Below are positions 19,913 to 64,000 of a DNA stretch of 64,000 nt, piece by piece. The DNA lies in contig JBEWZL010000179.1 of assembly GCA_045837725.1 (NCBI GenBank), positions 620,001-684,000 on the forward strand, given 5' to 3'. This DNA comes from Vermamoeba vermiformis. Its lineage: Eukaryota. Every line of letters begins with the position of its first letter. Positions within the stretch are counted from its first letter, which is position 1. The notes beneath the pieces were generated by a model that was not told the origin of the DNA, made no database searches, and saw only the letters and a program-made list of their open reading frames with translations. A program made the position numbers and the translations under genes.

Positions 19913-21533
19913 ATGGTAGGTTCGCGATCTGAACTCCGCAGTCAAGAGGATATTTTAATAACAATAATGCAATTCATTATTTATTATACAATGAGTCTTT
20001 GATTATAAATTGAATTTTGTAATTATTGGCTAATTTAGTAATAAAATTAATTATTTTTTCAGGATCTGCCCACAGAAATTTGGATTCATATCCTTTCGGA
20101 CTTCTTTGCATCATATTCCATGCGAGAAAAAATATGGCTTCAAAATGTGGCCGCTTTCTTGCAAGGTACTGAAGAGGACGAATTAACCGATCTGGATTTA
20201 CAACCAGCAAGCATTTATGAACGTCAAAAAGAAGTATATTACATGGCATTCCATTTTACTGTCTACAACAAGCAGTTGTAAGAAAAAAAATATCTGTTGC
20301 GTGACCTGATCGAGCTGACAGATTCGATTTTAGCGCAGCCGTAATGCAATCAAGACAAATATGGAAATCTATTTTCGAATGCACAGTAGGCACATATGAT
20401 TGGCGAAGAAGAGTGCCGCAAGAATTTGAAGTACGACTACAATCTGATTATTTAGCCGCTTGTACCTTCCTCCGCACATTTCAATTTCATTCGCATTTAA
20501 AATACGCACTCAGCGACAACGCGTTGCAACATTATATGCCCGATTTTACGAAAGAAACAAATCCTTCATGTACTAGATGCCAAGAACGAGTTCCTCACGA
20601 ACATTGGGTCAAGTTCAATGCACGGACACAGAAGCTCGTAGAATTCGAAAATTGGCCGCAATTTAACGACCAAATTCAAGTGATCAACGCAGAAAAAAAG
20701 TTTTTAGTCATTTCAAGATTAGAAGAGATCGTTTTATTCGATATCGAAAATGATTGCGTAGTTTGCAGGTTCTCCACGCAAATGCTTCCGAGAAAATATC
20801 ATCTCTTTTTTATCAATCGTAAGTAGTATTCCTTATATAGTAAAATAATAGATATTAATGCTATTTAAAGTGTACAAGAAAAAACTCGTATTCGCAGTTC
20901 AAGGTTTAGGCTATTACTTAAGAACACTTATACTAGACTTAGACAAAGGTCTATGTATCACAGACGATGATATTTCGACGTACAAACATTGGCCGCAAAC
21001 ACCGTACTACGTGTCATCGATTCTCAGTGGAGATCTCATCAAGTTCAAAATTCTGAACGACGATAATTCATTCACCACAATTCAGTTCGAAGCTGACTCG
21101 GCTGATCAAACAATTCTAAGAACAGATAATCCATGCACTACATACTTCATCGATAATAGGTAAGTGGTTCAGCTGAACTTCGTACCCGGATCTTTTTGAC
21201 ACGTGTCATTTTTTTGACAGGATGATTGTTAATGTCAAAGACGAAAGAGTCTACGAAGTCAACCCTCTAACTAGACGGATCATATATACTTTTCCTATTC
21301 CAAGTTTGGCAGATAACAGTATATTTTTGAGCACATTCACTCTGTCAGTTAGAATGGATCCGTCGCAAGACTACACGACTGCGACTCTACGGGATGTTTA
21401 TGACAATAAGATACTAGGATCTTTTCGCTTTAGAAACTCACTTACGGATTGGAACGCATTGTTAAATGGGGAGCCACTAGCAGAGCCTTCGCTACAATTT
21501 GTACAGACGGAAGAAAATAAAGTAATACTTTAA
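19913..21533 (+). CDS. F-box-like protein, paralog A
   Basis: M|DLPTEIWIHIL...YNKQ...SRQIWKSIF and CTRCQERVPHEHW. Exon layout is collinear with 23551-25212. The start codon is tentative. Confidence 0.7.
21197..21208. repeat. Intronic palindrome TGACACGTGTCA, copy 1
   Basis: Exact 12-mer in the last intron of F-box paralog A. Confidence 0.9.
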
Positions 21534-23113
21534 TAAATTCTACTTGCTGTTACAGTGTTGAATTTAGTCGCAACGGACGACCAATCTGAAAACCACCAAC
21601 GAAGGTCGAGCGTTGAATTTGTCACGTGTAGCATCCAGGCCTGTTCTGCACCAAGCAGCAGAGCGTAACGATGTGCAGCGTGCTTACGCTTTGCGAGGGC
21701 CTCTTTAGATGCACTGGTACAAATCTCCAGATAAACACCGGGTTGATTTGAATGAAGGCCTATCAACAGGCCACTACGAGGGTTTTCAGAATCGTTAATT
21801 TCTGGCACTAAGGTGTATACGTCCTTTGGCAACAATGCACGAAGAACTGTGAAGAACTCTGCAACGAAGACAGCTTCCTCTCTGGGACCTGATAAATGAT
21901 CCGTATGGAGAGACTTGGTAGATGCAATTGGGTAGGCCAATAGATCGAATTGTTTCACAACTTGCTTCACAAGCCGTCTAATTTCAGTCTCGTCACACAA
22001 ATCAGGCATGATTTGATAGCTCAAGTTCCGACGATCAACAGCGGTCACGTTACTGATCAAATTGTAGATCAGAGGACAGGGAATTTTGAACGTATTGTGT
22101 GAAAGCGCCACTAGAACTCCGTTAGCGGCGAGATGTAGTGCCAATTGCACTTGGTCTGTTGCTGTTACGGAGAATGGTTGGAGGCCACTATAAATCGCTG
22201 TGCGAAGGAACTGACGGCATTGCATCGCAAGATCAATTTCCTGCTGTGTTGCATGGCCCAACTTCAAGTCGGCTTCTGTTAGCGACAACTTATGCGTCAT
22301 CGAGTGCATCCAACTTGGAAGGTTTTTCATCAAGGAAGTTGTCGCGTACTGAAGCCACTTGCGAAGATCTTTTGCAATTGACGGGTTCGTAGCGATTGCA
22401 TGACAACACACACCCACGAGTGCTGCAAGGCCATTCGTTCGCTCGTGGATATCGTGCGAAATTTCATCGGGAATTTCAGTTGAGTACTGGCGAAGTAATT
22501 GCTTGACCTCGTCTTTTGACCAGTTACGCACTTCAATCTTCTCTGAGATATTGATCGCTTCAGCACCCAAAACTGGTACGCTGAATGTACCAGCCATAAC
22601 TACCGACAACAAGGATGGAGCGTGTGTTCGGAGTGAATAGAGGAGATGCAAAAAGTCATCTTTAACTTCTTTTGGCAAATGGTCAATGTTGTCGATGAAT
22701 AGCACCAACTTCCAGAAAATAGAATAACTTTCAAAATAGTTGAAAATATCTTCTTTAGACTCCAGCCGAAAATGTATTGAATCTGCCAGACAAAATCCAA
22801 CTGCTTTCCAAAATTCAAATGGAGGAAGTGCCTTCATATCAATGTACATATATGAGAAACCTTCACGACCTGCTATATCTACCATTGCGTTGAGCAATCG
22901 CGTCGTTATGCCAGATCCACGAGCGCCATAAAGCGTGATATAATCCCCTCTCAAAATCGCTGGTATTAAGTCTTTTTTGTTTTCTTCTGATGGATCCAAG
23001 ACGTAACAGTCCCTATTGCTGGTGGCACTGATGGCCCGATCGATTATAAACCTTGGTGAATTTGCATCTGCGCTGGTAGTAAATTCTGCAATTTGCAGCT
23101 TCTTTGTCTGCAA
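21530..23113 (-). CDS. Degenerate P-loop NTPase plus PD-(D/E)XK-like C-terminal domain (Crinkler CR-NTPase/REase-like); upstream exons (about 23185-23425) unresolved
   Basis: 527-aa uninterrupted ORF with TLYGARGSGITTRL (Walker A-like), LFIDNID (Walker B-like), TNGLAALVGVC and PREEAVFVAEF...PE...RSGLLI...YLEI...RY...AEQAWMLHVT. Confidence 0.7.
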   Translation of the reverse strand: MQTKKLQIAEFTTSADANSPRFIIDRAISATSNRDCYVLDPSEENKKDLIPAILRGDYITLYGARGSGITTRLLNAMVDIAGREGFSYMYIDMKALPPFEFWKAVGFCLADSIHFRLESKEDIFNYFESYSIFWKLVLFIDNIDHLPKEVKDDFLHLLYSLRTHAPSLLSVVMAGTFSVPVLGAEAINISEKIEVRNWSKDEVKQLLRQYSTEIPDEISHDIHERTNGLAALVGVCCHAIATNPSIAKDLRKWLQYATTSLMKNLPSWMHSMTHKLSLTEADLKLGHATQQEIDLAMQCRQFLRTAIYSGLQPFSVTATDQVQLALHLAANGVLVALSHNTFKIPCPLIYNLISNVTAVDRRNLSYQIMPDLCDETEIRRLVKQVVKQFDLLAYPIASTKSLHTDHLSGPREEAVFVAEFFTVLRALLPKDVYTLVPEINDSENPRSGLLIGLHSNQPGVYLEICTSASKEALAKRKHAAHRYALLLGAEQAWMLHVTNSTLDLRWWFSDWSSVATKFNTVTASRIY

Positions 23114-23550
23114 GCCTGATATGAAACGTTAATAATTATAGGTTATGTTAAATAAAATTTCGCATAATTAGGCTTTTTCACTTACCGTTCAAAAAGACCG
23201 AGATCTTACTAACGATAGATCTTCCTTGGTATAATATTGTAGCTTTGCCAATTGCAATGGGAGCTGTATAATATTAAACGAATTATTATTGGCGGTATAT
23301 AATATTTAAGAACAACTCACCTTGACCAGAATCCGATCTGCGAATCTGCAAGCCAGTTTTTAAAGCGCCGCCAGTTCTAGCCAAGGCAACACTACAAATG
23401 CGAGCAATCTTACTAACAAACATCGTGTAAATTTGTGGTGCTGTGTTGTTGCTGTTTATATTTTTGACATGACTTCACAAACTTAGAAAATTTCTGAATT
23501 TGTTTCATCATTAGTTGAACAATGAACTAGCAGTGCATGGCATCGAAAAT

Positions 23551-25212
23551 ATGAAGGTAATGCACGCATCTTGGCCGGATACAATCGCATTGAAAGGCTA
23601 ATTAGCGTCACAGCAGGATCTCCCAACCGAAATCTGGAACAAAATTCTTGAATACGCCTTCAAATCGTTCATAATAGAAGAAGAAAAATGGCTAGCAAAT
23701 ATTCATAATTTTCTGAAGTCACCAGATCAAGATCCAGTAGCTGCTGATCTCGATCTGCATGTTGAAAGCATTTTCGAGCGACAAAAAAATGCTCTAAAAT
23801 TGGCATATCAAGTTTTACTCGTATCCAAGCAATTGTAAGTCCAAAAGTTCAGATACAGCTGCGATCCAATTTTTATAATTTTAATTATTGTTCAGCAAAC
23901 TCATTCTAGACGATTCAAACGATATATGGCGTGATATATTTGCAGCATTAGTAGGAGCGAAGGTTTGGGAGGTAGAAATCCCTCATGTATTCAAAAACAG
24001 ATTTAATTGCCTTTACAAACCTGCCTGTCAACACATTATACGACTCGATCGATTCAAACAAGAAGCGATCGAGGATAGAAATTTCATACCTCACGGTGCG
24101 GCCCAAAGCATGAAACTTTTCCCGCCAAAAGACGGATGCGAACTTTGTCAGCGAAATCAGCATCACGAACATTATTTCAAATACGATGGATTTTCAAGAG
24201 AAATAGTCGAGTTAGATTTTCCACAAATTGAATTCAATCAAATTATTCTAGCAGGACCATATTACGTGATAACAACGCCAAATAGAAATTGTATCGTGTT
24301 CAGCATCCAACAAAACAAAATCACGTGCGAATTTTCGACGGAAAAATTGCCTCATTTTCGCTTGTTTTTTAAGAACAGTAAGTATTTTATCGATCAGCCA
24401 TTACAAGCAATAAATTAACAATTTTTTTAGTCGTTCAAAATAAGATTATTTTTTCATATCAAAGTCTCGAGTCATCGCAGCTCCAAACAATGGTGATTGA
24501 CTTAGACAGCGGAATATTCATTATTAACGAAGATATTTCAAACTACGAGCCCTGGCCAGACAAACCGTATTACTTCTCGCGACAAAATTTCAATGACAGC
24601 GACAAAACTGGCAACGAAAGTCATGCATTTTCATCGAAGTACTCGCAATTCAAAATTTTGACGGAAGACAACTGCATGTCAACCAAAGTAATCGATTGTT
24701 CCGCGTTCACTGAAAATTATTTAATTATATCACCAGAAGATGGTGCTAACTTCATCTTCCTAGATAACAGGTAACGAAAAAAATTCCTAATTCATGAACG
24801 ATGACACGTGTCAACACTTTTTACTCTTGCACACGTATATCAGTCATTATTATAATTCATTACTTAGCTATTCTAACGGACTATTTGCTCGTTCTATTGA
24901 TAATTGAAGCCTATTACGCAGTCGTTTGCTTACATTAGTTCATTGTCTAGGCTAATCGTTGTAGTGCCGAACAAAGGCCTCTTCGAATGCAACCCAATCA
25001 CTCGACAGATTCTGCGGAGATTCAGCAAAGTTAACAGCCTTGGTGTAAATAAAATGCGAGGCAAGTTCATGATAGAAGCGAAAATGGATCCGGATCCAAC
25101 GAGTATGGATGTGATAGCGCAAGTTAGAGATATGGAGACTGGTCTTATTGCCAATGAAATCAGAGCGACTTATCCAACAATTGCATTTGCTTCAGTTTAC
25201 TTCAGTAAATGA
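23551..25212 (+). CDS. F-box-like protein, paralog B
   Basis: MK|DLPTEIWNKILEY...LLVSKQ...SNDIWRDIF and CELCQRNQHHEHY. Intron positions match paralog A. Confidence 0.7.
24802..24813. repeat. Intronic palindrome TGACACGTGTCA, copy 2
   Basis: Exact 12-mer in the last intron of F-box paralog B. Confidence 0.9.
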
Positions 25213-25416
25213 ACATAGTGTTGCAAAATTCATCGTGTACGAACAACTTGCGAAATTTCTTTAGGAATAAGCTGCTAGCTAAAACGTTTTGTACATGTTA
25301 ATAGTACTATTTGCATGCATGTGGAAATCCCTTTCAACCATGCTACCAAAATGATTGCGCTTTCGGATCTTAATTTAAGCGTCTGAATCTGCCCAAATCT
25401 TGCTGTTGAAACAATT

Positions 25417-26551
25417 TTAATTATCAAAATCAGTGCTAATAGTAACATCTTTCCAATCCTCGAGATTGCTGCGAGATTGATCGATCATGTCGCCAATCAC
25501 TTTGTACGCGTCAGTGCCGAGTGCAACTCTGACTGGAATTTCACGACCACTAGCAGTCCCCGTTTGAGTGACTATATCCACGATCCTTTCGCAAGCTTTC
25601 TTCGGATCTCCCGGCTGTTTGCCGTCATAGTCGTCGTGAAACTTTTTGACACGTTCCATGACAGGTGCGTAGTCGCTGATTGGCTGTGCGTGTTTGAGAT
25701 TTGACCCACTCAAAACGCTTGTCCGGAAATATCCCGGCTCTATAATCGTTACTTTAATGCCTAGTGGCTCTAATTCTGCTCGTAATGATTCCGTAATGCC
25801 TAAGAAGAGCAATTATTATTGTCAGTACGGTATGACACGTGTCATTCGCAACTTTTCTATCAAAATTTTTCACAGTATGCGGTGATAACATAAAATATTA
25901 TTATTAAGAATAGTTGCTCAATATAGGGAAGAATATTAGGTTCGTTGTTGTTACGGATCCGTTCTTACCTTCGAGTGCGAACTTGGTCGCGGCATAAAGT
26001 CCCACGCCAGGTGCTCCTCGCCAACCAGCCACACTTCCAATATTTACAATGATGCCTGAACGACGAGCTCGCATGTGAGGCAAGAAAGCACGAGTCACAT
26101 TTAGCAAGCCAAATAGATTTGTGTTGAATTGTTGGTACGTCTCTTCCGGCCTATAATTACAACTTCTATTAGCTTACATTATAAGACCTAATATATATTA
26201 TTCTCATAGGTGCCGGATATGATTAATATATAGTATTTTTAGTCCTTACGAACACTCTTCAATGGCGCCACGTTGCACGTAACCAGCGTTGTTGACGAGT
26301 ACGTCCACTCGGCCAAAAATTGATACTGCAGCTTCAGCTATTGATTTTAATTCTTCTAATGACTGCGCGACATCTAGTTTAAGCACTGATACGTTTGGTT
26401 TGGTGTTTAGATCCTTTGAGAGTTGGTCAATGTTCCGTGAAGTGGCTATCACTTTGTCTCCTCGTGATAATATTGAATGAACTAGTTCAAGGCCAAATCC
26501 TGACGAACATCCTGTGACGAGCCACACGCGGTGTTGAGTAATTTCAGACAT
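25417..26551 (-). CDS. Short-chain dehydrogenase/reductase, 3 exons
   Basis: [15 protein letters not shown], catalytic [13 protein letters not shown] and QPGDP. Confidence 0.95.
25833..25844. repeat. Intronic palindrome TGACACGTGTCA, copy 3
   Basis: Exact 12-mer in SDR intron 2. Confidence 0.9.
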
Positions 26552-27013
26552 TCTGATCCAAAATAAATAATTAATTTCTTGATCTGAATCTTCGAAAAAC
26601 TAGATAATCTTGCCATAATTATCGTTATGAATGCGAGCTTATTTAATTAAATATTTTTGAAATTATAATTGGAAAAAACTTTAATCTTTTCCGTTTACGA
26701 ACAAATACGCAGGCATTTGTTATCCCTTACCTATATTATCGGTTCAAATAGTAAAAAGGGCGCAATGATCTTGATACGTGGTGACGAGAGTGAGTTTGGC
26801 GTGAAGATTATTATTTTCATTTTCTTGCCCACAACCACAACCACAACTTATTTTGAGCTCGTCTTGCGAGAGAGTAAGTCATAGTTTATACATGCTTTTA
26901 GCCATTTGAGAAGGAATGCCGCATATTGCGCAAGGAACCATTTTCATCATTGATTCGATCTCGTGCCAAAACTGCCAATTAATTTTTAATAATTATAGGA
27001 ATATTTCTACACG

Positions 27014-28300
27014 ATGTCTCATGAGTCAAATAATACCGAACAGCTTCCCAGCCTCCCATTGGAATTAATTGAAAGAATAATTATTCCCAATTCAGCGGTC
27101 TCGTGGCTCCGAGTCTCCAAGAAATACAATTCACTTGCGATAAACTACGCAAAAAACGATCCAATATTCTTGAAAGATCCAAAATCTGCCGTTCAAGGGG
27201 CCATTGTCAACAAAAACTACGCACTTTTAGATGCGCTATTTACAGACGCGAGATATCGTGCCAATTATATCCTTAGTCAAGTGTTTAATATGGGCAAGGC
27301 GGATAAATCAACAAATATGATATTTCTCAAGCATTTTTCCAACGTGCATTGGATAACGGTTCGGATCTTGGATCAAGCAGCGAAATCTGATTGGATTGAC
27401 GTCATTGACTATATAGGAAATAATGATAATGTAAAGAGTATTCAGTTTGATTGTTTCGATACTATGTCAGAGAGAATATTCACAGCCGTGATCCACCATC
27501 CGAAACTCCAATATACGGACAACTTAATTTACCAGATTGCAACGAATCTTAGAATACCGAACAAGATTAAATTAAAGATCTTAGATATTCCAAACATCTA
27601 TATGTCACTAGTAATAGAAAAATTTGCATGCCATGAAGAATTCGTGGATGCGCTGTTAGAAGATCAGCGCGTAAAAGAATCGATTAATCTGCAGCAACAA
27701 TTATGGACAAGAATTATTGCTACTCAAGACTCAATTTCGACTATAAATCATTTTTATGACAAGTGCGAGAAAGTAAGAATGATTTTAGCAAAGAAGTTAT
27801 TGGATCCGTCGATCGATTTCAATTTTCCGTTACGAATTGTATTTAAAGAGAGAAAATTCGAAGAAAAAAGTCAAAAGATTGCAGCGATGTTATTGGATGA
27901 CGAAAGAGTAATATTGACACTTGAACCGTTCGAGAAGAACTTGATCTACACCGCGATCGTGCAATACGCAGAAGTTTTGACTGCAAAAGTGAAGTTCATA
28001 TTAAGTCATCATAAATACAAAAAAGAATGGTTCGAGAGTGTTATGACATATTTATTAGACCAGCAATGTGAGCTGAAGACAATTAACAACACCGAAAAAC
28101 TATTCATTGAGCACCAATTCGACGAGTATTTGAGCGAGGAAATTCGCGCAAGAGCTCCAAAGGCAATCAAACAATTGCACAGAATGCACTCTTATTATTA
28201 TAACTACTTTGATGAGACTGGTTTCTACTCGGATGAGGATGAAGACGAAGAAAAATTCAATGACGATGAAATTGACGAATCTGTTGCACCGTTGGAATAA
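27014..28300 (+). CDS. Intronless F-box-like protein with degenerate ankyrin-like helical repeats and an acidic tail
   Basis: LPSLPLELIERII...WLRVSKKY; repeated LL.D.RV; LDPSIDFNFPLR. Confidence 0.7.
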   Translation: MSHESNNTEQLPSLPLELIERIIIPNSAVSWLRVSKKYNSLAINYAKNDPIFLKDPKSAVQGAIVNKNYALLDALFTDARYRANYILSQVFNMGKADKSTNMIFLKHFSNVHWITVRILDQAAKSDWIDVIDYIGNNDNVKSIQFDCFDTMSERIFTAVIHHPKLQYTDNLIYQIATNLRIPNKIKLKILDIPNIYMSLVIEKFACHEEFVDALLEDQRVKESINLQQQLWTRIIATQDSISTINHFYDKCEKVRMILAKKLLDPSIDFNFPLRIVFKERKFEEKSQKIAAMLLDDERVILTLEPFEKNLIYTAIVQYAEVLTAKVKFILSHHKYKKEWFESVMTYLLDQQCELKTINNTEKLFIEHQFDEYLSEEIRARAPKAIKQLHRMHSYYYNYFDETGFYSDEDEDEEKFNDDEIDESVAPLE

Positions 28301-28733
28301 AGAAATGTTTTTTCCTTTTCACCTGTTGATGCACGGTTCATGGTGCGTGACACATGTCAACAGGGGTATCACCAAGCAAGCCCGGATCAAACCATAGATA
28401 ACAAAACAAATTGGTGCCCAGCTAATCGGAGATAAAGTTCTTTTATAGCCCAGAATATATGCTCGTAACAAACATTTCAACGTTAATTTGTGAGCTACCA
28501 AAATTCTGCACTGAATAAGTTGGAAATCAAAAAAAGTGTTCAGTCTTATAGTCTTCTCCAACCTCAATACACCACAATAGCCCTGTATGTATAATTGACA
28601 TGTAAGGATAATGCTTCGTTTGTTGCTGTTAAACATGAACCACAAAAAAAAATTGAAGCCCAATAACAGCATACCACTATCTAATAAGAAGAAAACAGAA
28701 AAAAGAAGAAAAAGCAAAATAAGTATTTTACTT

Positions 28734-30993
28734 TTAATCAATCTTTTCCATTACATCCTCAGACAATGCAGTCCACTCTAAAAAATAGCATCTAACTAAA
28801 GTTAGTATTTACTTCAATTTATGTTGTCACTCCTTACCTAGTGCCTTTATCTTTGTTTAATTCAATTCTGCTAACATATTTGTGGAGTCCCAATATTATT
28901 ATTATCATGTCAGCCAAAATATCTTCATTAACCAATTTCCCACAAACATATGAATTCAACTTTTCAATATTACATTTAGATACATTAATCTTCAGCTGGT
29001 CTATCACCTCTGATGTTCCCCAATATTTGTCTAATACTTCACTTTCTTCAGTTTTGGTGATGGCAATGTCCTTGTAACACTACTGTTATTACTTGTTTTG
29101 TAAGAATGTGAGAATACTACCGTCTCTCTGATACTAATCTCCCAAGTACACTTTATCAAATCTTTTTCTGTTGTGGTTGCAAATGCTAGTTGCATGAACA
29201 TTGGATTTTGGGATTCTTCGGTTCTTAAAGTCAACATTATAAATCTGGCAAAAGCAACTCCAAACCTTTTTATAAAAGGAAGGCCTATGGACTCTTCCCA
29301 AACTTTAAATTCAATTAGCATTCAACTTAGATATTTTCAATAACATAAATACCTGAAAATGATATTCTATCAATTAAGGTAAACATTTCTCGTTTTAAAT
29401 TCAGTTTGACTCCTTCCTCAACTGTCAATAATGGAGAATTGGTATTGGTGAGAATCTGTGGTATATTTAGTGTCATCAATTTATAGAAATACTGTAGTTG
29501 TACCTTGTCAATTTCAGCATAAAGTTCCAATCGCTTCAGCTCAAACAATATAGATGGGCCGCAAGAGGCTAATGCTTCCTTCTCTGATATCTTGTCCCAG
29601 GATAATCGTTGTTGTAGTACTCCTGTGTTGATTTCAGTTAATAACAAGGAAATATAGTTGAAGTGTTTTGACTACCATGGAAATCAATGGGAGAAAAATT
29701 TGCCGGTGGATAGATCGTATCTGGGTTCGCTGATATTGCCCGCAAAAACATATACAGCTGCTGCATATTAATCTGTTCGTTATATCCTAACCACTGTATC
29801 ATGATGTTAAAGGATTCTTCATTTGGTGCAACGTAAAATCTCATGCTATTCGAGTCTCTGTGTTGGTTTAGGTTACTAAATGAATAACTATCTTCTGGTT
29901 GATCATCCTCGTCCCAACAGCAGAATGTTGCCAACTGGAGACTGCGTGGTGCTGTATATGTAGCCAGTGAGTCTAAATTGGCAGAGAAACCATATCTCTC
30001 CATATCTCCAACAAGAGAATCATATTTTAGCATTGCTGAGAAGCTGTAAATAACTTTAGCGAGATTTCCATTTTTTCCTATAATTATCATTTCTACAGAT
30101 TCTTCTTGAAAAGTTCTTCCAACCTGATATGACCCCCAATAATATTTTGCTCCTATTTATGAATCTGAATGTCAACAAACAACTGGACACAAAACATACA
30201 TAAAACATTAAAGAGAGCACAATATTTTGTAAAATAATACCATACATATTCAAAACTAAAGATGAAAAGTATTTAAACAGGTTACAATGTATTATTTGTT
30301 GGCATACCTATGAAACCAATGTGTTGTGTCATATTTGAGAAGTATGAAATGAATTCTTCGGGATTTTCACCAAAATTTTCAGCGATGAGGTCTGTATTTG
30401 CAGCAACAGTATCAGTCCAATACTTTTGCATGAACGCACGTTGCCACTCGAGTTTGGACGCTGCATATAGATTCGATAGTGCCTCCAACTAATACAAGAC
30501 ATTACAAAAAATGAATATGCAATCAGCAAACTAACCTTTAAGTGGAGGTTATTTTCATTATCGAGACGTATGCTTTGATATTCTTCATAGAATCTTGTAA
30601 TGGCTAGCCACAGCAGGAGATTATTTACCAAATCTTAGAATTACTGTGCAACAATACCTATTTCCCTAAAGCAAAATGTATTGAACAACGTGCGTATTGA
30701 GTCAATATTTGTGATTTTAATATTCGCTTCATTAATATCTGTTCCCAAATAAGATTTGTTAAAAAAAATAATTAATATTAATTAAAATAATTACCAAAAT
30801 AATAGCAAACAGCGCTGGTAAGCACTCGGTCATTATAACTTGCTTTATGCCATATTTTGCAAACTCGTTTGGTGTAAAATAAATTTCCCGGATGCAGAAA
30901 CGTGAATACAGTTGCTAAAATATCTTCCGTAAGAAGTGGACAATGCCCAAGTGATTGCTCCGATCTTGGTCGTTTTCTCAGACGCTCGTCCAT
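28734..30993 (-). CDS. F-box protein, multi-exon
   Basis: MDERLRKRPR...LLTEDILATVFTFLHPGNLFYTKRVCKIWHKA, followed by consecutive minus-strand exons. Confidence 0.7.
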
Positions 30994-33882: not shown

Positions 33883-35983
33883 TTAGAGCTTTTGGAAGCT
33901 TCGGTCAAGAACTTCAATCATGAAGTCAACATCCTGTTCAGTGAGGCACATAGGAGGCTTAATTCTCAAAGTGTTGCCATAAAAGCCACCTTTGCCGACC
34001 AACAAGCCCAGATCTCTGGCATTCTCCAAGATTTGAGCAGCCTCTTCCTTAGCAGGGGCCTTAGTCTTGCGATCCTTGACGAGCTCAACGCCCAACATCA
34101 AACCCTTGCCGCGGACATCTCCGATAACGGCGTGCTTCTCCTTGAGCTTGTTCAAGCCGTCCTTCAATCTCTTGCCGACCTTCAAAGCGTGAGCTTGAAT
34201 GTTCTCCTTGTCAATGACTTCCAAAACAGCCTTGCCGACAGCGCTAGCAACGGGGTTACCACCGTAAGTGTTGAAGTGAATACGTTGAGTGAGTGACTTA
34301 GCGATTTCGGGAGTAGTCACGACAGCGGCTAAAGGCCAGCCGTTACCAATACCCTTGGCCATAGTGACTAGAAAAAAATTACAGGATCAGATCACGTGTC
34401 ACACGCACAACAAAACGCCCAGCGTTATTAATTAAGCGTAATTAAATACGTACCGATATCAGGGATAACGCCTTGAGTCTCAAAGCTCCAGTAGTGAGTA
34501 CCAGTACGACCGAAACCTCCTTGAACTTCGTCGGCGATAGTAACACCACCAGCTTCACGAACGGTCTTGTAGACTTGTTGCAAATAGCCATCAGGCAATT
34601 CAACAGTACCACCAACACCCTAGCAACGTAGGAAAATTAATCTAATTATCCTTGGATACGAATCACAAGTGGCGGCGAAACAATTTGCAACAGATCTATT
34701 CGTCAATTGGTAGCGTATTTAAAGTGTCAAGAGCATTACTGAGAATAAACATAGATGTCTCCAATAAATTATCGTAAAAATAATTACCTGAATAGTCTCG
34801 GCGATGAAACCAGCAACCTTTCCGGATGTGCCGTGCTCGATCATGTTCTTGACATCCCAAGCGTACTTAGAAGCAGCATTGGCATCATCGTAACCGAAAG
34901 GACCACGATATCTGTCGGGGTTCAAAACGTGGTGAATGCCAAAGCCTGGTCAATTAATCCAGTGTGAGCAGATTGTTAGCCGTTACTAAAATTAGGAGTG
35001 TTTCTGAAACGATAGATGCGGACATCGGAAAAGCGAAATAAGGTATTAACAAAGACAAATCTATTATGGAGACACGTGCCAAGTGCGTAAAATATATAAC
35101 TGAATTTTTCTGAATTTTTTTGTGGTTCCGCCGCACATCCAAAGATTTTTCCTTACCTTGAGGAACGGGGTACTTCCAGGTTGAGTGAGCAGTCAAACCC
35201 ATAGTGCTAGGGCTCATACCTAACGTAACGGAATCATATTAGTTTAAGTTGAGCGACTTTCGGGCAACAATCTGCGGAAACTTTGCCGTTGAAAAAATCA
35301 ATTGAATATCTTGAATAGAAAAATTAAATTTGATCAATGGAATATTTGAATATTATACATATGCTTTAAGGGTATCGCGTGCTAATTATAATTTTCCTGA
35401 CGAGTTGAAATTTTTTTACTTTAGATTTTCCAAACTTACCGTGGTAGCAGTTTCTAAGAGCCAAAACGTCGTAGTTTCCGGTGTGGAGACGTGCCATGAG
35501 CAAGGCCAAGTCGTTGGCTTCAGAGCCAGAGTTGACAAAGTAGCAAACCTTGAGATTGCCGGGCATCTTGTCAGCCAAAGCTTTAGAATATTCAGCGACT
35601 TGATTGTTCAAGTAGATGGTGGTGCTGTGTTGCAATAAATCGAGTTGTTCCTTGGCCTTTTGAGTGACATAGGGGTGGCAGTGACCAACGCTAACAGTGA
35701 CAATACCAGCAAATCCATCCAAGTATCTTCGACCGTTCTCGTCAAACAAATATTGTTGCTTGCCTTCGACGAGCATCAAGGGCTTCTTGTAGTACTTGAA
35801 CATAGCAGGGTTCATGTAGGTATCACGCAACTTGATAACTTGCTCGGCAGATGGGCCTTTGTAGGGCTTGGGGGTGTAACTGAACTCGGGCAATTTGGGC
35901 TCGCTAGCATAAGATCGAACCGCGACAGAGGCGGACGACTTCTTAAGATAAGCAGAGCAAGTCTTAGTAACAGCCTTGAACAT
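33883..35983 (-). CDS. AGXT2: Alanine-glyoxylate aminotransferase 2-like class III PLP aminotransferase with a mitochondrial presequence
   Basis: [50 protein letters not shown] and HFNTYGGNP. Confidence 0.93.
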
Positions 35984-37700: not shown

Positions 37701-41164
<3,464 letters not shown>

Positions 41165-41244: not shown

Positions 41245-44200
41245 CTACTTCTTCTTATTAGTCTTTTTGATCATTGTTCCAGTAATTTTATGATTGTCTT
41301 GAATGAGCTTCGTCAAGTACGGCCAATACTCGTTGTAATATTCCATCAACTGCGGAAGAATGTCGAGTGCTGTTTTGCCTTCATTGTTTTTCACGTCTGT
41401 TTTTGCTCCAACTTTATAGCTTAAATTTAATACGTAGGTCTTGTTTGGATAAATTTTGAAGATAGAACGAGGTACCTGATACAAGCTTGAACGCTATGTA
41501 ACAATAGCGCACAGATCTGTTGAAAGTCCGTGACCGACCATGAATTGTGTCCAGCACGCCAAGATGGAAATAATAACACGCGTGATGCAGCGCTGTATTT
41601 CCTTCGTCATCTTGCGCATTAATATCAACGCCTATTGTTCTACACGTTATCATTCGGTCTGAAAATTGATTTCGAAATAGACGTTTACCTGTCAAGTTCA
41701 ATAAGCATTCAATCATTGCTCGCCAATGCGCCACTGAAAAATTTGATTTTCTCTTGTCTGAGTATTGCACGCCCCTCAACATCTGCAATAATAAAATTAA
41801 CGTTGTTGGGTTTGATACGACTCTTATCATTGACGTACTTTCTCTAACAGATAATATGTAAGCGGAGTTAGTCCCAGGACCTTCGTATTAACTTCATCCG
41901 GATTAGCACGTGCAATGTTCTCAATGACCTTCGGATCCAAAAAGTTGTTTTTGATAACTTCGTGAATGAGCGAAGTCTCCGTTGGATTGATCTTGGCGTT
42001 AGCCCAGTTGATGCCTGCCGTATGATATTTCCATATTAGGAAATTTCTAATAATCCGGTTGTCAAGTACCTTCAATGCTGCATAATTGTGACGAATAAGC
42101 GTACAACAGAGGACTTTGAATGAGCCGTTGAAGACCGGTCACGCCGAATTCATCTGCTGCGTTCATTGCTTGAGCGATTGATGGACTGCATTCTTTGATT
42201 AATGTCGTAATGTCGCTGTTTAGATATAATAAAGTTAGACTCCTTCGCAGGCACACGATAAAACCTTACTTTTCCTTGGGCTCAAGAGTAGCGAGGGAAT
42301 TAAACAGCCTAAGAGTTATCGTTAGATAAAAGGCAAGTGAAAGTGTTCGCCAACGTGAAAAATATGAATCTGTAACAGAATAGAGTTGACACGTGTCAAA
42401 GTGTCAAAGTGTCAGAGTGAAATCCGTCCTATTACAAACAACAAATCTCAAGTAATACTTACAAATGAAGCGGCATTGTGCCTCTTTTGTTTGGCGTGGC
42501 CCAGAGTTCTGCAAGTTTGGGAAATTTCTGAGGCCAATCAAACACGCCTTTTTGTCTGTGCACGACCTACGACCCAAAAAATAAAAATTTCATCGACAAA
42601 GATTATTTACTTACGTAATGCAAGAGGTTGTTGCCAAGATGATCGGTGAGTGTCAAATCGCACTTTTCCAACAACATTCTCAGAATATTATCGACAACCG
42701 CTGCTGGCAGCTCCTTGGGCTGGCTAAAATAGGGTTTTTAGTATTCCAATAAAAACAATTATTCCGCCGTACATGTCATTAATTTCCTCGTTTTTGGGCC
42801 ACCACGACGGTCGTCTTAACTTTGCAAAAACGTCCCTTGAAAAAAATACGTGAGTAATTAATCATATATTATGATCGTTCATACTTATTCAAGTTGTCAA
42901 ATGTTATTAGTTGCCACGCGTCTGAACGATCTTGCAAACTTTGATAATAATAGTTGAATCTGTGCGAGGGGGCATTGGGTGACACGTGCGACAGCAAGCA
43001 CATCGCCGCTGAAATTTTATCAATTTTATCATTACGATGATGTGTAATAATCTTATCTTGCTTACGCGTCAATTTTAAAGTATTTGTTGCCGCATTGACA
43101 TCAGCACCGAGTTCAAGGAGCAGTTTCACCGTGGTTCCATTGCGCACAGCGTAATGCAATGGCGTGTATCCAGCCAAGTCCCTTTATAAAATATTAATAG
43201 GTGTCATATAAAAGTTATTTATAAAATCATACCTGCAATTGATTGCTGCGTTTTTGTCTTTCACGTTGGGGTGATTTAAAATTTCAGTGATCGCCTCATC
43301 GGGTTCATCAAGATCCACGAGAAAATGAAGCAATGATCGTTTGAAAGGCTAAATGAAGGTATATAAATAAGACATAGTTAGTGTTTAGGTTGAATAGTGT
43401 TACCTTGTCTGTCAGAGAGAAATCGATGTTGCTGCCCTGAATGATTTTTTTCCAATTGTCTGTGGCACTGACCATCAGTGGCGTCATGCCGAGCATATCT
43501 TGCGCATTGATATTTGCGCCGTGACTTAACAGTGCATTTACTACGCCTGGCTTGGAACCATCTGCAAGCGCAGCATGTAAGGGTGTCCATCCGGAGGGAT
43601 TCTAAGTGGTCAGTGTTAGTCTTATTGTTGGACGCGGGTTGTATGAATTTGAATGCGCCCAACAATACTTAAATTTACGATTGAAATTTTAATCAATAAA
43701 GGCGCAATATTAAACAAAATCGCTTAACGAAAGATTTTACCGTTAAAATAATTTTGCTCAAAAATTGCTATTTTTGGATATTTTGATTATTAATTTGTTA
43801 ATTTTGATTCGACATTCCAACAATGGAACAGAAAATTGATCCGATGTTGTCACTTACGCTATGATTGACCTCAGCACCGAGTTGCAATAACATTTTGACC
43901 TTCAACAATCCGTTTTCTAGTGCCATGCACACCAGCAGTAGCGGAGAGTCTCCGTCTTGAGTAAGCTCGTTGACGTTCAAATTGAGGTCTTTGATCATTT
44001 GTTTTAATGTTTCCGTGACTGCAGGCACCTCACTCGGCTCCGGCGGAGGTGTTCCTAATCTCAATTTGTGGCTCGATTTGGCACCTTTGGCATCGATAAG
44101 CACCAAATAATGAATCAATTTGAATCCTCGGTCATCGTACTCTTGCGGATAATTTCGGAAATATTCCGATCTGATGTGGAGTTAAACGTCAACTATAGCA

Positions 44201-55900: not shown

Positions 55901-57648
55901 CCGTTCTTGACAACTGGCTCGCACATCACGCTTCAGATTGACGTTATCTACGAGAGCTGCACCAATCACACGTGGTATCTAAACAACGTTGAAGTTCTCC
56001 CATCCAATGATCGCTCAAGCACGTATGATTTTGTAATTGGACCCGAAGGCGCTCAGTCTGGCTCGAAGTTCTACGTCGTGGCAATCTGTGGAGAGTCACG
56101 ATTAACCTCGGACCCGTACATAGTCCCAGATACTACTATTCCCGTATGGGCCTTTATTATTATCCTAATTGGTGGTGCTGGCGTTGTCAGTGCAGTTGTA
56201 GTCATCACTTACATCAATTACAAACGGCTGCAACGAAGCAAAGAACAAGAAGTCGAACTCAAAACCATGTTAAGCAAAGCGCACGAAGAAACAATTGCTC
56301 ACCGCAATAACAAAGGTGCACAGCTCATCAGCTGCATTACTTGGGAGTGGGAGCCAGACAGCAGCTTCTCGTTCGCTCCCATCGATAATTTCCCTGTTCG
56401 CATTGACACTTCACACCTCAGTCTCGGAAAGAAGAGTGATCTGCTTGAAGTCGATGTCTGGACACAAGGTGTTTTAGAAATTTCATCAAAGAAGATCAAG
56501 AAGAGAGCGAGAATATCATCGTTCTTGAATCAACGATTGATCGAAGAATCGCCTCACGTTACGATCTATGCGCCGCAGTCTCCAAAGTTCGAAGTTAAAG
56601 TCTCACCAGAAACTTTCAGTCTTGAAGACGGCACTGACGTCACCGTGACAGTCTCGGTCCGATTGCGAATTACCACCAAAGTGAAGATCAAGCTGTTGAT
56701 AGTCCTCGAGAACCAACGCGTCTATTCGTCAATTGACTTCACATTGGCCAGTTTGCCCTCGCCGTGGATTGACCTCGAAGACATTCAAATGAGCAACGAT
56801 TTCCTTGGCCGCGGAGGGTAAGTGTCAAAGTTATCAGACTGGCCTTTATTAATGTTGTTCATAGTTTCGGATCCGTTGTTCGTGGCACGTACAAAGGACA
56901 AGATGTTGCTGTGAAGACGTTGAAAGAAGACATTATGGAAGAACAAGAAAAGAAAGAGTTTGACCGAGAAGTGATGATCATGCGCAGCTTGCGCCATCCG
57001 AACATTGTGCAATTCATTGGTGCTTCGAACATTATGAAGCGCGTTGCTATTGTCACTGAACTGGCACCATTAGGAAGCCTTGCGTCGCTCCTAGCCAAGG
57101 ACTATCTTATCGCTTATCCACTCAAGCTCGAGATCCTATTGGAGATTGCCAGAGCCATTCAGTTCCTGCACGCAAACGATGTCATTCATCGTGACATTAA
57201 GCCTGGCAATGTCTTAGTCTTCTCATTAGAACCGAAAGCAACGACACACGTCAAAGTGTCAGACTTTGGCACGTCAAAATTTGTTGCAGAACAGGCAGCA
57301 CCAATGACGAAGAACACAGGCACTGTGAATTATAATGCACCTGAAACATTCGGAAAGAATCCATTGTACACTTTCAGCGCCGACATCTTCAGCTTTGCAA
57401 TTATGATGTGGGAAGTTATTACGAATGTACCAGCCTTCTCAAAGGAAATTCATCCTGATTTCTCATTTGACTACAAGATTGAAGAGCACATCATTGCTGG
57501 CAGAAGATTGGAAATCCCACGTGAGGTTGACCCTCGTCTTGCCGCTCTGATCACTGATTGCTGGGCGCACGATCCAAAGAGCCGTCCTACAAGTGACAAC
57601 CTTGTACAGCGATTGAGTGTTCTCGCGCAAGAAACACGCAACAATTAG
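52965..57648 (+). CDS. Receptor kinase: signal peptide, Kelch-like propellers, Ig-like domains, TM, juxtamembrane beta domain and TKL Ser/Thr kinase, 4 exons
   Basis: Kelch motifs LFIFGG, LYIAGG and LVFAGG; Ig-like LRYSWRLN...GVYSVHI; TM WAFIIILIGGAGVVSAVVVITYI; LGRGG|FG, HRDIKPGN, DFG and APE. Confidence 0.92.
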
Positions 57649-60548: not shown

Positions 60549-63500
60549 ATGTCCTTATGGCTAAAGGCATGTACAATACTGCTGTTCATTGCGTGCATTG
60601 ATAGCATGCAATGGAGAGAGCCAACGTCTTGGACATTTATGGGCGTTTTGGATGGGCACGATTACTCTCGCGGAAGTCGCGCGTATTTTTGGAAACCTAA
60701 TTGCCCGCATGGTAAATAATCCATATAATATACGAACGATCGAAATTCAAATAAACAAATTAGTGCAAATTATTTTTAATTTTTCGTTCGAAAGTGTCAG
60801 ATGCCGTGTCATTAAATATCCTTTAATTTAATTTTCTACTTCATAATATATTAGTATTGTTAGAAAATAGTATTGAATAATTTTCGGCTTCAGTGAAATG
60901 AAGCGCTTTCCAGTCACATTTCTGATCTCTCGATTAGGCTTTTTACGCATTGGTGACGCGGTAACATCCGAAAATATCATACCCACACGAGTAATTGCCT
61001 GTGTATTTGGTCAAGATTACGAAATTACGCCTATATCTCACGATATGATGACGCTCATTTACGATCCCGCAAATAGCGAACTATTATTTTATCGAGGATT
61101 CGCACCAGGTACTAATTCAATAATGCTATAATATTATTTACTACTATTTACATGACTAACAATAATCAACCGTTCTCGTATTATCGGACTAGCAAACTCG
61201 ATCTGACATTTCTCAACGATTATAGGACCCGTAGCAATGTTAGGCACGATGATTACAACAACAGCATCATTTACGCCTGATGTTGGACGCGGAAAAAGAT
61301 CAACAGAAGCTGTTCAAGCGGTCGATCCGAACCTTCAATTTTATGCGGCTTTTATTGGGCCTTGTCTGGGCACCCATCAAGTAAGAAATTCTACCGCTCG
61401 CTATATTTAGCAATATAATTAACTATTTAAACACCCAGTGGTGCGATCTGACTTCGCGTTTCGAATCCGTGGGTCAGTTTATCATTGGATTTAATCCATT
61501 CGAAGCGCTTCACTTCTCAATGCCTGGAAATTTATTTTTACCGGCGTCCAATCCAAATCCATCGATATTGGGCTGCTTAGCGAAGAAATGTACGGAAAGA
61601 ACGATTTTGAAATTTGTTTCTCGTTCACTGAAACTATCATTAGGTGCCTGTGGCGGCTGCGTGCATGGAAATTGTACCGAAGATGGGCGCTGCGATTGTC
61701 ACCCTCAATGGATGGGTCTTAGTTGTGACAGTAAGAAACCACATCAGATCCGAATGTTGTTTCGTTTACTAATTTGGCGAAATATTGCAGAGGATATTAA
61801 TGAATGTGCGCAAGGCACCGCTCAATGTGACCCACTCGTAGAATGTATTAATGACATGGGCGGATATAGCTGTGGTAAGTACTAGAAACTTCTAGAACAA
61901 CATTGTCATTCGAAAATCTTTTGACACGAGCATCCGTTTGACTTTTTTTGACTGAAAGTTCAATTATACACTATGGTACATGATAATATCAATATATGGG
62001 CTCTATAATTAATTTTTGAAAGTTTTACGCCGTTCACATTTTGACACTTTTGACAGGTCCGTGTCCTCCAGGCTTCAATGACATCTACAGCAACGGCACA
62101 CTATGCGAAGGTAAATACTATAATGTATCATCTTTTGGTCCTAGTAATAATACTGTAGTACATTAGATATCGACGAATGTGCAGATCCAACGCTCAATAA
62201 TTGTGCGTCGTTGGGATTAAATTGCACAAATTTGCCGGGGAGATTTCAATGCACGGACTGCGAGGTTGGCAGCTACAGACCCACCCCGGGCTTGCAATGC
62301 AGATTTCAGTCGTGTGGCAATGGCAAGTGGGACGACAAAGAGGAGTGTGACGGTGGACTCGGCTGCTTTGCGAATAATTGCACTTGTTCGCCGCTGTGGG
62401 AACCTACTGTCCCGCGCTCACCTGACTGTCAACGACGTAAGAAAATTCTTGCAACACTTCATACAAACCTTTACGACTTTCCAAATTTGGAATTAATTGC
62501 TCTATTGCTTTGAAGAGAGGCGTTTCCTAATTTGGTCATATCCTTTAGGTTGCGGAAATCTGAGACTGGATCTGCCCGAAGAACAATGCGACGGCGGTGA
62601 AGGCTGTCGAGCAGAGCTGTGCATTTGCAACACTGGTCGCGGCTATCAGCCCATCAATTCAACTTCGTGTGGCTTCAGTAAGTGATGCACACCATTGTTT
62701 TCCTATTGTCATTGCTACTTGCAAATGATTTTTTGCATATGACACGTGTCACATATCGAATGACTCAATCATCTATGTTATGATGAATTACTTATTGTGA
62801 ATTGTGTTGTAGGACTGACAGACCCCGAAGATATTTTGTGTGCTCGGCTTTCAGGCAATGGCTGCGAAGAATGCACGCAATTCAACTGCATTTGGTGTCC
62901 GAACGAAGAAATCTCTTGCGTGCCCAGATCGAGACCCACTGGTGGTTGCACAAGTACGTACAATGAAAATAAATTTATTCTATCCATTGATTTTTTAGAT
63001 AAAATGAGGTGCATTAATAGTGAAATTTTACTATAAATTCCAATAATCGTGCTAAATGATATTAATTTTTTGTAATTATCAGCCACGTGCAATGGTGCCA
63101 TCGTAAATCCACCAGCTGATGACGTGGCAACTGAAAGTCTGAACAAAATCATTTTGATTATTTCACTAGTCGGTGCAGCGGTGATTGTCGTTGCAGGCAT
63201 TGGCATTGGTGTGCTGATCATTTATCGACGAAGAAAACGATTGAAACGATTGGAGGAAGAGCGATTACTCGATTTGGAACGGAAACGTATGGCTGCTGTT
63301 TCCAAATATGGAATTGCTCGGTCAGAAGTTGGTCAAACTACCGCTGGTGAATGGAACCCGCCAAATGATTCTACGTACGAAATTTCATTTTTTATTAATT
63401 AAACGCTAATTTTTTGCGACAGGCTAATCTTGGTCGAACAATTGCCGTTCACGGTAAGTAAAATGACTTTCCTAATTTGGTAGCACGAAGTTGATGAATG

Positions 63501-64000
63501 TTTTTCAGATGTCCAAAGCGGTGTTTGATTTTAACAACGGAGAAAATCAGTTCAAAGTCAATTCACTTTACGTTGACCGCGTCACAATCTCGCTCAAAGA
63601 TAAAGTCCCAAAACCACCGAAAAAACACAAGAAAATGGACGAAGACAAAATTCCGCTGGTCACGCAGACTGAACACAAGAAACGGTCCGGCGAGGCTGAT
63701 GAAGTTCATTTTGTCTTTCACAACGTCGACTCGCACAAATATCGCTTGGAATTTATGCCGAATTCGGGCTACTTAAAGAAGGTACAGTACAGCATGATTA
63801 AGCGCATATATTGTTGACACGTGTCAAAATACGAGCACGTGGATATCATTTACAATGGCCTAACGGCACACTTGCGATATTTTAACGTGTCAAAGTGTCA
63901 TAATGTCAAACTCATACTAATGTTTTTTTGTTCATTAGGGCAAAGACCTTGATATCACAGTGACTATGGAAGTTAAAATGACCACTGAAGTCGAGATAGT
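60549..64000 (+). CDS. Type I receptor with EGF/EGF-Ca and other Cys-rich repeats, TM and juxtamembrane domain; truncated at the window end, kinase possibly beyond
   Basis: Signal peptide MSLWLKACTILLFIAC; DINEC and DIDEC EGF-Ca starts; CGNG...EECDGG repeats; TM IILIISLVGAAVIVVAGIGIGVLII followed by YRRRKR. Confidence 0.85.
62740..62751. repeat. Intronic palindrome TGACACGTGTCA, copy 5
   Basis: Exact 12-mer in an intron of the EGF receptor gene. Confidence 0.9.
63815..63826. repeat. Intronic palindrome TGACACGTGTCA, copy 6
   Basis: Exact 12-mer, extending to TTGACACGTGTCAA, in an intron of the EGF receptor gene. Confidence 0.9.

Follow-up and report, generated by a model that had tools for sequence, protein, structure and literature searches.

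A perfect 12-base palindrome that recurs in the introns of a 64-kb protist locus, a candidate site for a dimeric DNA-binding protein

Why would one 12-base word recur, letter for letter, in the introns of five genes within a short stretch of a protist genome, and at what level would it be read: in the DNA, in the pre-mRNA, or not at all? The word is the perfect palindrome TGACACGTGTCA. It occurs in six exact copies in the window, by which we mean the whole 64-kb stretch analysed here.

Recurrence of the palindrome and its host introns

An earlier note on this DNA had reported exact copies at 21197, 24802, 25833, 42387, 62740 and 63815, and all six coordinates were confirmed. The mean expectation from 100 dinucleotide-preserving shuffles is 0.01 copies, and none of the 100 shuffles reached six. 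An order-3 Markov model likewise expects 0.01 copies in the window. TGACACGTGTCA is the top over-represented 12-mer, and the lists of over-represented 10-mers and 8-mers are led by its sub-words. It is also the only 12-base perfect palindrome that recurs in the window; every other one occurs at most once.

Copies at exactly 0, 1 and 2 mismatches number 6, 2 and 4, while shuffled sequences average 0.01, 0.15 and 2.24 copies with up to 0, 1 and 2 mismatches. The excess is concentrated in the perfect copies, and all 12 positions therefore look constrained. At the centre of the word is a palindromic CACGTG core (with ACGT inside it), as in a G-box or E-box. CACGTG itself is in twofold excess in the window (35 occurrences vs 14.8 expected), and TGACAC is 1.5-fold over expectation. 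TGACAG is without enrichment (38 vs 34.5 expected). Decay through DNA methylation was ruled out, since the CpG observed/expected ratio of 1.16 in the window indicates no CpG depletion.

The six copies and the introns that hold them are as follows, with distances from each copy to the two splice sites.

Copy 1, 21197..21208: 61-nt last intron 21160-21220, + strand, of paralog A; 37 nt to the 5′ splice site, 12 nt to the 3′ splice site.
Copy 2, 24802..24813: 180-nt last intron 24771-24950, + strand, of paralog B, homologous to the intron of copy 1; 31 nt (5′) and 137 nt (3′).
Copy 3, 25833..25844: 169-nt last intron 25800-25968, − strand, of a short-chain dehydrogenase gene; 124 nt (5′) and 33 nt (3′); intron seen as an RNA joint.
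Copy 4, 42387..42398: 154-nt intron 42309-42462, − strand, of an ankyrin-repeat gene; 64 nt (5′) and 78 nt (3′); fused to a direct half-site array.
Copy 5, 62740..62751: 135-nt intron 62678-62812, + strand, of a gene with calcium-binding EGF domains; 62 nt (5′) and 61 nt (3′).
Copy 6, 63815..63826: 157-nt intron 63782-63938, + strand, of the same EGF-domain gene as copy 5; 33 nt (5′) and 112 nt (3′).

All six host introns are of the GT-AG type, and the reading frame is open across each junction. RNA reads directly support the intron of copy 3, whose joint (25798 to 25968) is present in five reads of run X12 and in none of run X10; the other five introns are deduced from open frames in the sequence. 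Three RNA runs with the same species label were aligned to the window. For two of them, most aligned reads match it at 90-95% or below, and read depth over the host genes is near zero. It is almost nil over 24802 and 42387, and joints were seen for one of the three covered motif introns. The location of all six copies in GT-AG introns thus agrees with the earlier note, as does the count of five genes on both strands, copies 5 and 6 sharing a gene. The product of this gene also has a predicted membrane-spanning stretch, and the intron of copy 6 contains a further CACGTG at 63836 and a half-site array at 63885.

Beyond the exact copies, the window holds several partial versions of the word.

One-mismatch variant TGACACATGTCA, 28348..28359: spacer or 3′ region between convergent genes, 51 nt past the stop of a 433-codon + strand ORF, outside any demonstrated intron.
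Two-mismatch variant AGACACGTGCCA, 35070..35081: in an RNA-supported − strand intron (joint 34944 to 35156) of an alanine-glyoxylate aminotransferase-2-like gene.
Lone 8-nt half ACGTGTCA, 34394..34401, + strand: within an RNA-supported 86-nt − strand intron (joint 34367 to 34454).
One-mismatch variant TGACACCTGTCA, 5333..5344: within an open frame that looks exonic.
24-nt array of three 8-nt units, ACGTGTCA AAGTGTCA AAGTGTCA, 42391..42414, + strand: overlaps copy 4.
Second copy of the 24-nt array, 63885..63908, + strand: 22 of 24 bases identical, 59 nt downstream of copy 6.

The near matches previously listed for this DNA are of uneven quality. Those at 28348 and 35070 hold, with one and two mismatches, respectively. 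The site at 34390 differs from the 12-mer at three positions and retains just the 8-base half, and the sites at 40551 and 59193, with four mismatches each, were rejected. The one-mismatch copy at 5333 was missing from that list; it is probably coding and may be a chance occurrence.

The palindrome as a site for a protein dimer

Paralogs A and B share an exon structure, and their proteins are only 30-45% identical. Both have TGACACGTGTCA in the homologous last intron (at an F[IL]DN|R junction), 37 nt into the intron in A and 31 nt in B, and these two introns are unalignable beyond the motif. Such retention in diverged paralogs argues for selection. From a frequency of about one copy per 3.6 kb of intron, the chance that both paralog introns would hold a copy is roughly 8e-4. 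The paralogs had been described earlier as F-box genes sharing the motif in an equivalent last intron. The shared position stands, but the F-box label is weak, as it depends on a lone sub-threshold Pfam match to an F-box-like domain in one paralog (E=0.074, 13.3 bits vs a cut-off of 24.3).

The two 24-nt arrays, whose units end in GTGTCA, have opposite orientations relative to the sense strands of their host genes (42391 vs 63885), and lone half-sites in introns are split 10 vs 9 between the strands, with no bias. These observations fit a reading of the DNA and not of the RNA. Together with the perfect dyad symmetry and the retention in the introns of old paralogs, the two-way arrays suggest constraint on double-stranded DNA. 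The absence of a fixed distance to splice sites and of a common RNA fold, set out below, also favours a dimer site at the DNA level.

We therefore consider it about evenly balanced that TGACACGTGTCA is the double-stranded-DNA site of a symmetric dimer, kept by purifying selection as an intragenic cis-regulatory element. A docking site for a paired DNA-binding regulator is the most likely identity of the word, rather than an intron-specific signal or the scar of a mobile element. A sequence-specific protein would bind TGACACGTGTCA as a symmetric dimer with high affinity. This protein could be a bZIP or bHLH dimer of the kind that recognises G-boxes and E-boxes, or it could be a factor with TGACAC half-sites as its target. 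Its binding would alter the transcription of the host genes or of their neighbours, with the site acting as an enhancer or silencer within genes, in a compact, intron-rich genome most of whose non-coding DNA is intronic. Purifying selection would then keep the 12-mer.

Several observations do not sit easily with a dimer site of this kind. The ~8.3 kb of intergenic-like DNA, in which promoters are to be expected, holds no copy, and three of the six are in last, not first, introns, an odd placement for a promoter-proximal regulator. The sites of real factors tend to include many degenerate copies, whereas perfect copies dominate here; this dominance could instead reflect recent copying. The lone half-site lacks a regulatory signature. 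Its density (as TGACAC) is 0.89 per kb in exon-like and 0.87 per kb in intron-like DNA, and half-site enrichment was therefore rejected as a regulatory signal. Introns make up ~72% of the non-coding DNA in the window, so an intronic location of all six copies has p≈0.15. Thus, the earlier statement that the word is always within introns is true of the six copies, but this is nothing special given the share of intronic DNA. The genome-wide intronic protein-binding element proposed in the earlier note is partly supported: a protein-binding element is the best reading given the symmetry, the paralog retention and the arrays, whereas its intron-specific and genome-wide character is conjectural.

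A second motif of the transcription-factor kind follows the same pattern, which speaks for the cis-regulatory reading and also means that a mostly intronic location is not peculiar to the palindrome. CArG-box-like sequences, CC(A/T)6GG, occur 21 times in the window, 16 of them in intron-like DNA, and CCAAATAAGG occurs four times vs 0.20 expected. Several CArG-like copies are in the EGF-domain gene and the ankyrin gene, which host three of the palindromes. CArG-like boxes and palindromes in common genes are what intronic regulatory modules would look like.

Resemblance to known binding sites

The closest likeness is to plant G-box/ABRE-type ACGT elements, which are palindromic and read by bZIP or bHLH dimers. 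In a peach study, GACACGTGTC is the motif of a co-expression module assigned to a bZIP, with tGaCACGTGtc listed alongside (PMC8133646), and another report gives agaCACGTGtcg as its “canonical G-box” gel-shift probe (bioRxiv 10.1101/2020.03.10.985002). GACACGTGTC is identical to the inner 10 bases of our 12-mer. However, plant G-box elements are promoter sites and degenerate beyond ACGT, whereas here 12 bases are invariant in six intronic copies and no copy is upstream. The host is also not a plant: the best named relatives of a kinase encoded in the window are amoebozoan, at 35-37% identity. Protein searches with three of its sequences brought up no close named relative.

Animal bHLH-Orange proteins (Hairy/E(spl)/Hey) use class B/C sites of the form TGGCACGTGCCA or GRCACGTGYC, and other CACGTG E-box binders exist. 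These sites are likewise a 12-base CACGTG palindrome with purine/pyrimidine-symmetric flanks, and GACACGTGTC fits GRCACGTGYC. We know of no report of bHLH-Orange sites as a dense intragenic repeat.

The TALE-homeodomain dimer site (MEIS/PKNOX/TGIF) is TGACAGCTGTCA. Both it and our 12-mer are 12-base palindromes with two inverted TGACA half-sites, but the TALE site has GC at its centre where ours has CG, which changes base six of either half. Rather than inverted TGACAG pairs, the palindrome therefore has TGACAC halves. The earlier note was right about CACGTG and the inverted TGACA half-sites; its TALE assignment does not fit, given these halves and the unenriched TGACAG.

TGACAC appears in a Ciona study as a functional Brachyury core, and Brachyury is described there as able to bind palindromes as a dimer (PMC3812116). 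The T-box half-site core TNNCAC includes TGACAC, and the arrays of AAGTGTCA, with their 8-nt period, resemble tandem half-sites. The spacing differs, since the two halves of the classical T palindrome stand four bases further apart than those of TGACACGTGTCA. To our knowledge, T-box factors occur only in animals and the unicellular organisms related to them, and in some fungi.

In a literature search covering main texts, the 12-mer and its 10-mers occurred as primers, probes and plant G-box motifs, with no report of an intronic repeat. A search on TGACAC half-sites and intron-enriched palindromes in protists gave only the T-box lead above and the Amoebophrya lead below. The 12-mer is absent from all 20 other loci examined. 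A metagenome scan with a RAD51C-like protein yielded a related contig, L001, of about 72-78% nucleotide identity, which skips 19.6-31.0 kb of the window and spans none of the six motif sites. A scan with a 532-codon ORF found no relative. The sequencing runs behind X5 and X6 match the window at 88-99%. A 16-base word from the array had eight single matches in viral contigs, where the 12-mer is lacking, and these were judged to be chance.

Alternative explanations

A tightly bound dimer might instead serve an architectural purpose towards the 3′ ends of genes and where convergent genes meet, as a roadblock for termination, in cohesin positioning, or as a replication or chromatin boundary. Copies 1-3 are in last introns, 325-624 nt from the stop of the convergent neighbour (stops at 21533, 25420 and 25209), and the one-mismatch copy at 28348 is in a convergent spacer, 51 nt past a stop. 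Promoter-side spacers hold no copy, and invariance at all 12 positions is compatible with a very stable complex. Against this, a symmetric roadblock in an intron would stop the polymerase of the host gene as well. Moreover, copy 4 is more than 1 kb from a convergent end, copies 5 and 6 give no such distance, as their gene continues beyond the window, and the 3′ pattern was noticed post hoc in six sites only and is not significant. We regard an architectural element as rather unlikely. A related idea is that of a lineage-specific, genome-wide intragenic mark: an extremely specific, symmetric protein would bind the 12-mer in gene bodies, by preference in 3′-proximal introns near convergent ends, and would either form a boundary or roadblock or jointly switch a set of silent, stage-specific genes. 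This idea is doubtful to a similar degree, and we know of no such intragenic-mark system in amoeboid protists. The genes that would share the switch are paralogs A and B together with the ankyrin gene, the EGF-domain receptor and the dehydrogenase.

All six copies would be transcribed as intron, and the motif could thus be read in the pre-mRNA, as a splicing enhancer or silencer, as branch-site context or as the site of an RNA-binding protein. In the 61-nt intron of gene A, the sole well-placed branch-point-like sequence, a TTGAC lying 21 nt from the 3′ splice site, overlaps the motif, and three copies are 31-37 nt from the 5′ splice site. However, the motif stands anywhere from 31 to 124 nt from the 5′ splice site and from 12 to 137 nt from the 3′ splice site. 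Of the other five introns, four contain a branch-like site of their own outside the motif, 13-50 nt from the 3′ splice site, and the last 60 nt of the intron at 62740 lack one. The predicted structures have no fold in common (z-scores range from -2.4 to +0.7, and the motif pairs differently in each intron), nor did the window yield Rfam matches at the gathering score or hits in a tRNA scan. The introns therefore display neither a known RNA family nor a stable conserved fold. Dyad symmetry is not needed for an RNA signal, and the arrays flank the motif in both orientations relative to the sense strand, so sense-strand specificity is lacking as well. An RNA-level element is therefore unlikely, and the splicing role raised in the earlier note, which had named position relative to splice sites as a check, is disfavoured by these variable distances and the lack of a shared structure.

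The copies could also be what is left of a small element, mobile or intron-generating (introner or MITE-like), or its minimal core, or they could have spread by copying, in which case their identity would reflect youth. Introners show similarity along the whole intron, terminal repeats and target duplications. The introners and MITE-derived introns of aquatic protists resemble our case in having a short repeat within introns, but the six introns here share only the 12-mer; one such case is the “invasive intronic elements” of Amoebophrya (PMC7789003). There are six perfect copies to two with one mismatch, the palindrome could represent two abutting inverted ends, and the 24-nt array common to two introns (22 of 24 bases) recalls the subterminal repeats of some transposons. 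In addition, the 19.6-31.0 kb segment absent from L001 contains three copies. On the other hand, the best local alignments among the 15 intron pairs, in both orientations, are 12-33 nt long with scores at or near shuffled maxima. Similarity ends within 12-15 nt around the motif, the one 24-nt array excepted. The flanks of the six copies share only a preference for A/T at the adjoining base (11 of 12) and have no apparent inverted ends or direct repeats, and no larger repeat family covers the sites. Paralogs A and B stem from an old duplication and carry the motif in homologous introns, which makes at least this copy old. A mobile-element relic, which the earlier note had also entertained, is therefore unsupported by the flanks and distinctly unlikely.

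Recurrence by chance or through a compositional artefact, which could draw only on the general excesses of CACGTG and TGACAC in the window, is in effect refuted by the shuffles and the Markov expectation given above and is vanishingly improbable.

The cis-regulatory codes of free-living protists beyond model species are almost unknown. A letter-perfect 12-base word in the introns of old paralogs offers a handle on them, both for pulling down its binder and for finding a co-regulated gene set. It also lets one ask whether introns are the main regulatory space of a compact genome. Should the pattern of 3′ ends and convergent genes extend to the whole genome, it would indicate a role in architecture or termination, something further out of the ordinary.

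Recurrence and intron placement of the palindrome

The 12-base perfect palindrome TGACACGTGTCA, which has a CACGTG core and inverted TGACAC half-sites, occurs in six exact copies in the 64-kb window (21197, 24802, 25833, 42387, 62740 and 63815), exactly as an earlier note had reported from the sequence. An order-3 Markov model predicts 0.01 copies in the window, and 100 dinucleotide-preserving shuffles gave a mean of 0.01, with 0 of 100 reaching six. TGACACGTGTCA leads the window's 12-mers in over-representation, its sub-words top the 10-mer and 8-mer lists, and no second 12-base perfect palindrome recurs in the window, all others being single. There are two one-mismatch variants in the window, at 5333 (TGACACCTGTCA) and 28348 (TGACACATGTCA), and four further sites have two mismatches. 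Nearly all of the excess over shuffles is in the perfect copies (6, 2 and 4 sites at zero, one and two mismatches; cumulative shuffle means 0.01, 0.15 and 2.24). TGACACGTGTCA is a real, strongly non-random palindrome, and is probably selected.

The claim that the copies lie in GT-AG introns also held: all six are found between a GT donor and an AG acceptor, with the frame open.

Exact copies of TGACACGTGTCA and their host introns
21197, + strand: intron 21160-21220 of paralog A; GT-AG, open frame over junction
24802, + strand: intron 24771-24950 of paralog B; GT-AG, open frame over junction
25833, - strand: intron 25800-25968 of a short-chain dehydrogenase; GT-AG, open frame over junction
42387, - strand: intron 42309-42462 of an ankyrin-repeat gene; GT-AG, open frame over junction
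62740, + strand: intron 62678-62812 of an EGF-domain gene; GT-AG, open frame over junction
63815, + strand: intron 63782-63938 of the same EGF-domain gene; GT-AG, open frame

Among these six introns, only that of the dehydrogenase has direct RNA support (joint 25798->25968, 5 reads, one run). RNA joints confirm two introns of the aminotransferase gene, one containing a lone half-site (34394) and the other a two-mismatch variant (35070). The RNA runs bear the source's species label, but most of their mapped reads match the window at 90-95% or lower. The mapping covered three motif copies (24802, 25833 and 42387), and depth is near nil over the introns of 24802 and 42387. The host genes of 24802, 25833 and 42387 have almost no RNA depth, while neighbouring genes have 10-20x; given the strain mismatch, this is a lead only. 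Within 24400-44399, where these values were obtained, similarity reaches 95-99% in a run that bears the label of another organism. Probably, the species labels of the runs hide a species complex.

The window and a related contig

The window is eukaryotic, has about 40% G+C and is rich in short GT-AG introns. Pfam matches identify genes for a Y-family polymerase, a RAD51C-like protein, an alanine-glyoxylate aminotransferase-2-like protein, a helicase C-terminal domain, a pyruvate-phosphate-dikinase-like protein, an FAD/NAD oxidoreductase and calcium-binding EGF domains, as well as ankyrin-repeat exons and a Kelch receptor kinase. The Kelch-kinase gene (53183-57645) is long and nearly intron-free; its protein joins Kelch repeats to a TKL-type kinase at the C terminus, and an Ig-like match scored 20.3 bits, below the cut-off of 23.7. 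Unnamed metagenome proteins in which Kelch repeats accompany a kinase domain are among its closest relatives (48-58% identical), and the best named relatives of the kinase are from Physarum, Entamoeba and Pelomyxa (35-37% identity). The catalytic loop reads HRDIKPGN, and we therefore rejected a tyrosine kinase identity.

Part of the window's DNA is also present in water metagenomes. For the RAD51C-like protein, no named relative above about 50% identity was found. We take the source to be an aquatic protist of a poorly sampled lineage, probably an amoeboid one. The only related contig recovered, the metagenome contig L001, is about 72-78% identical. It is collinear with 14253-19600 and 31065-33304, and lacks the intervening 11.5 kb (19600-31065) at its positions 5586-5880. 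Located in that segment are paralogs A and B, the dehydrogenase, and two ORFs of 532 codons (AAA-like) and 433 codons; the difference is either an insertion in the window or a deletion in L001. L001 contains no copy of TGACACGTGTCA, and the segment it lacks carries three of the window's copies.

Intron location and paralogs A and B

The earlier note stressed that the palindrome is always within introns. All six copies are, but this is not meaningful by itself, because introns make up about 72% of the window's non-coding DNA in a rough partition that used strand blocks and a codon-usage scan and assigned 33.8 kb to exon-like, 21.9 kb to intron-like and 8.3 kb to intergenic-like sequence. For all six to fall in non-coding DNA, p≈0.011; given that they do, p≈0.15 for all six to fall in introns. 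Of 21 unrelated CArG-box-like sites, CC(A/T)6GG, 16 are intron-like, and CCAAATAAGG and CCAAATTAGG have four sites each in the window (0.20 and 0.18 expected). In this genome, introns seem simply to be the place where non-coding signals sit.

Palindromes resembling CArG or Mcm1 P-boxes (TTTCCWAATWAGGAAA; CC(A/T)6GG) occur at 13421-15619, 38786, 42031, 58208 and 62481-63471, four of them within or next to introns of the EGF-domain gene, the host of two TGACACGTGTCA copies. The CArG-like site at 15231 is perfectly kept in L001 with differing flanks; three other sites are not kept.

Genes A and B share a four-exon layout and 30-45% protein identity, consistent with the paralogy previously proposed. 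Their designation as F-box genes rests only on a sub-threshold Pfam match in A (E=0.074). Both have TGACACGTGTCA 37 nt (A) and 31 nt (B) from the donor of their homologous last intron, which follows F[IL]DN|R, and no other alignable sequence was found between these introns. By our own arithmetic, the chance of both short introns holding a copy is about 8e-4, at about 1 copy per 3.6 kb of intron. On the simplest reading, the two copies would descend from one in the ancestral intron, all 12 bases being under selection.

Candidate function of the palindrome

Judged from sequence, the best reading of TGACACGTGTCA is a dimeric, G-box-type protein-binding site. Its inner ten bases are the same as those of a plant G-box assigned to bZIP factors (PMC8133646), and a canonical G-box has served as a gel-shift probe (bioRxiv 10.1101/2020.03.10.985002). 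CACGTG is twofold enriched overall in the window (35 sites; 14.8 expected), and two further flank types, AGACACGTGC and CACGTGCAAT, recur at four sites each. CACGTG sites include those at 11898, 14708, 14930, 35073, 41907, 51231 and 63084. In Ciona, TGACAC serves as a functional core for T-box binding (PMC3812116), and the 8-nt arrays described below look like tandem half-sites. The density of lone TGACAC is the same in exon-like as in intron-like sequence, and the TALE-type half-site TGACAG is not enriched in the window. The unit is the palindrome, not the half-site. Separately, a heat-shock-element-like 8-base palindrome, GAAATTTC, has 13 mostly exon-like sites (3.6 expected), for example at 19456, 24078, 40447 and 42040.

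The main rival to an enhancer reading is an architectural or termination-related role, which is suggested weakly and post hoc. None of the six copies is in an upstream spacer, three are in last introns, and for copies 1-3 (21197, 24802 and 25833) a convergent neighbour's stop is 325-624 nt away; these properties count against a simple enhancer. The one-mismatch copy at 28348 is also within a convergent spacer. Near it in this spacer, at 28686-28722, long stretches of A terminate numerous RNA reads on both sides, which suggests an A-rich tract or ends like those left by polyadenylation.

An RNA-level signal is less favored than a double-stranded DNA site read by a symmetric dimer, which would fit several properties besides the dyad symmetry. 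The distance to the 5′ splice site ranges from 31 to 124 nt and that to the 3′ splice site from 12 to 137 nt, so neither is fixed. The six introns are predicted to fold in different ways and without unusual stability (z -2.4 to +0.7), and no Rfam family matched at gathering score. Three 8-nt units (ACGTGTCA AAGTGTCA (A/T)A(A/G)TGTCA) form a 24-nt array at 42391-42414, abutting copy 42387. This array recurs at 63885 (22/24 bases) within the intron of copy 63815, and the orientations of the two arrays relative to their host genes are opposite. Lone half-sites in introns have no strand bias (10 vs 9).

A water-metagenome contig, which probably spans copy 42387, follows the window as far as 42406 and rejoins it at 42457; in place of the 50 bases 42407-42456 it has 7 other letters, an indel polymorphism beside this copy, at the array.

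The relic of a mobile element, also raised in the earlier note, is not supported: oriented half-site flanks share only A/T at the adjoining base (11/12), best local alignments of the 15 intron pairs in both orientations (12-33 nt) score at or near shuffled maxima, similarity around the motif exceeds 12-15 nt only in the single 24-nt array, and no larger repeat family in the window covers the motif sites.

The candidate binding site for a dimeric protein would, on our best reading, be housed in introns because that is where non-coding DNA sits.
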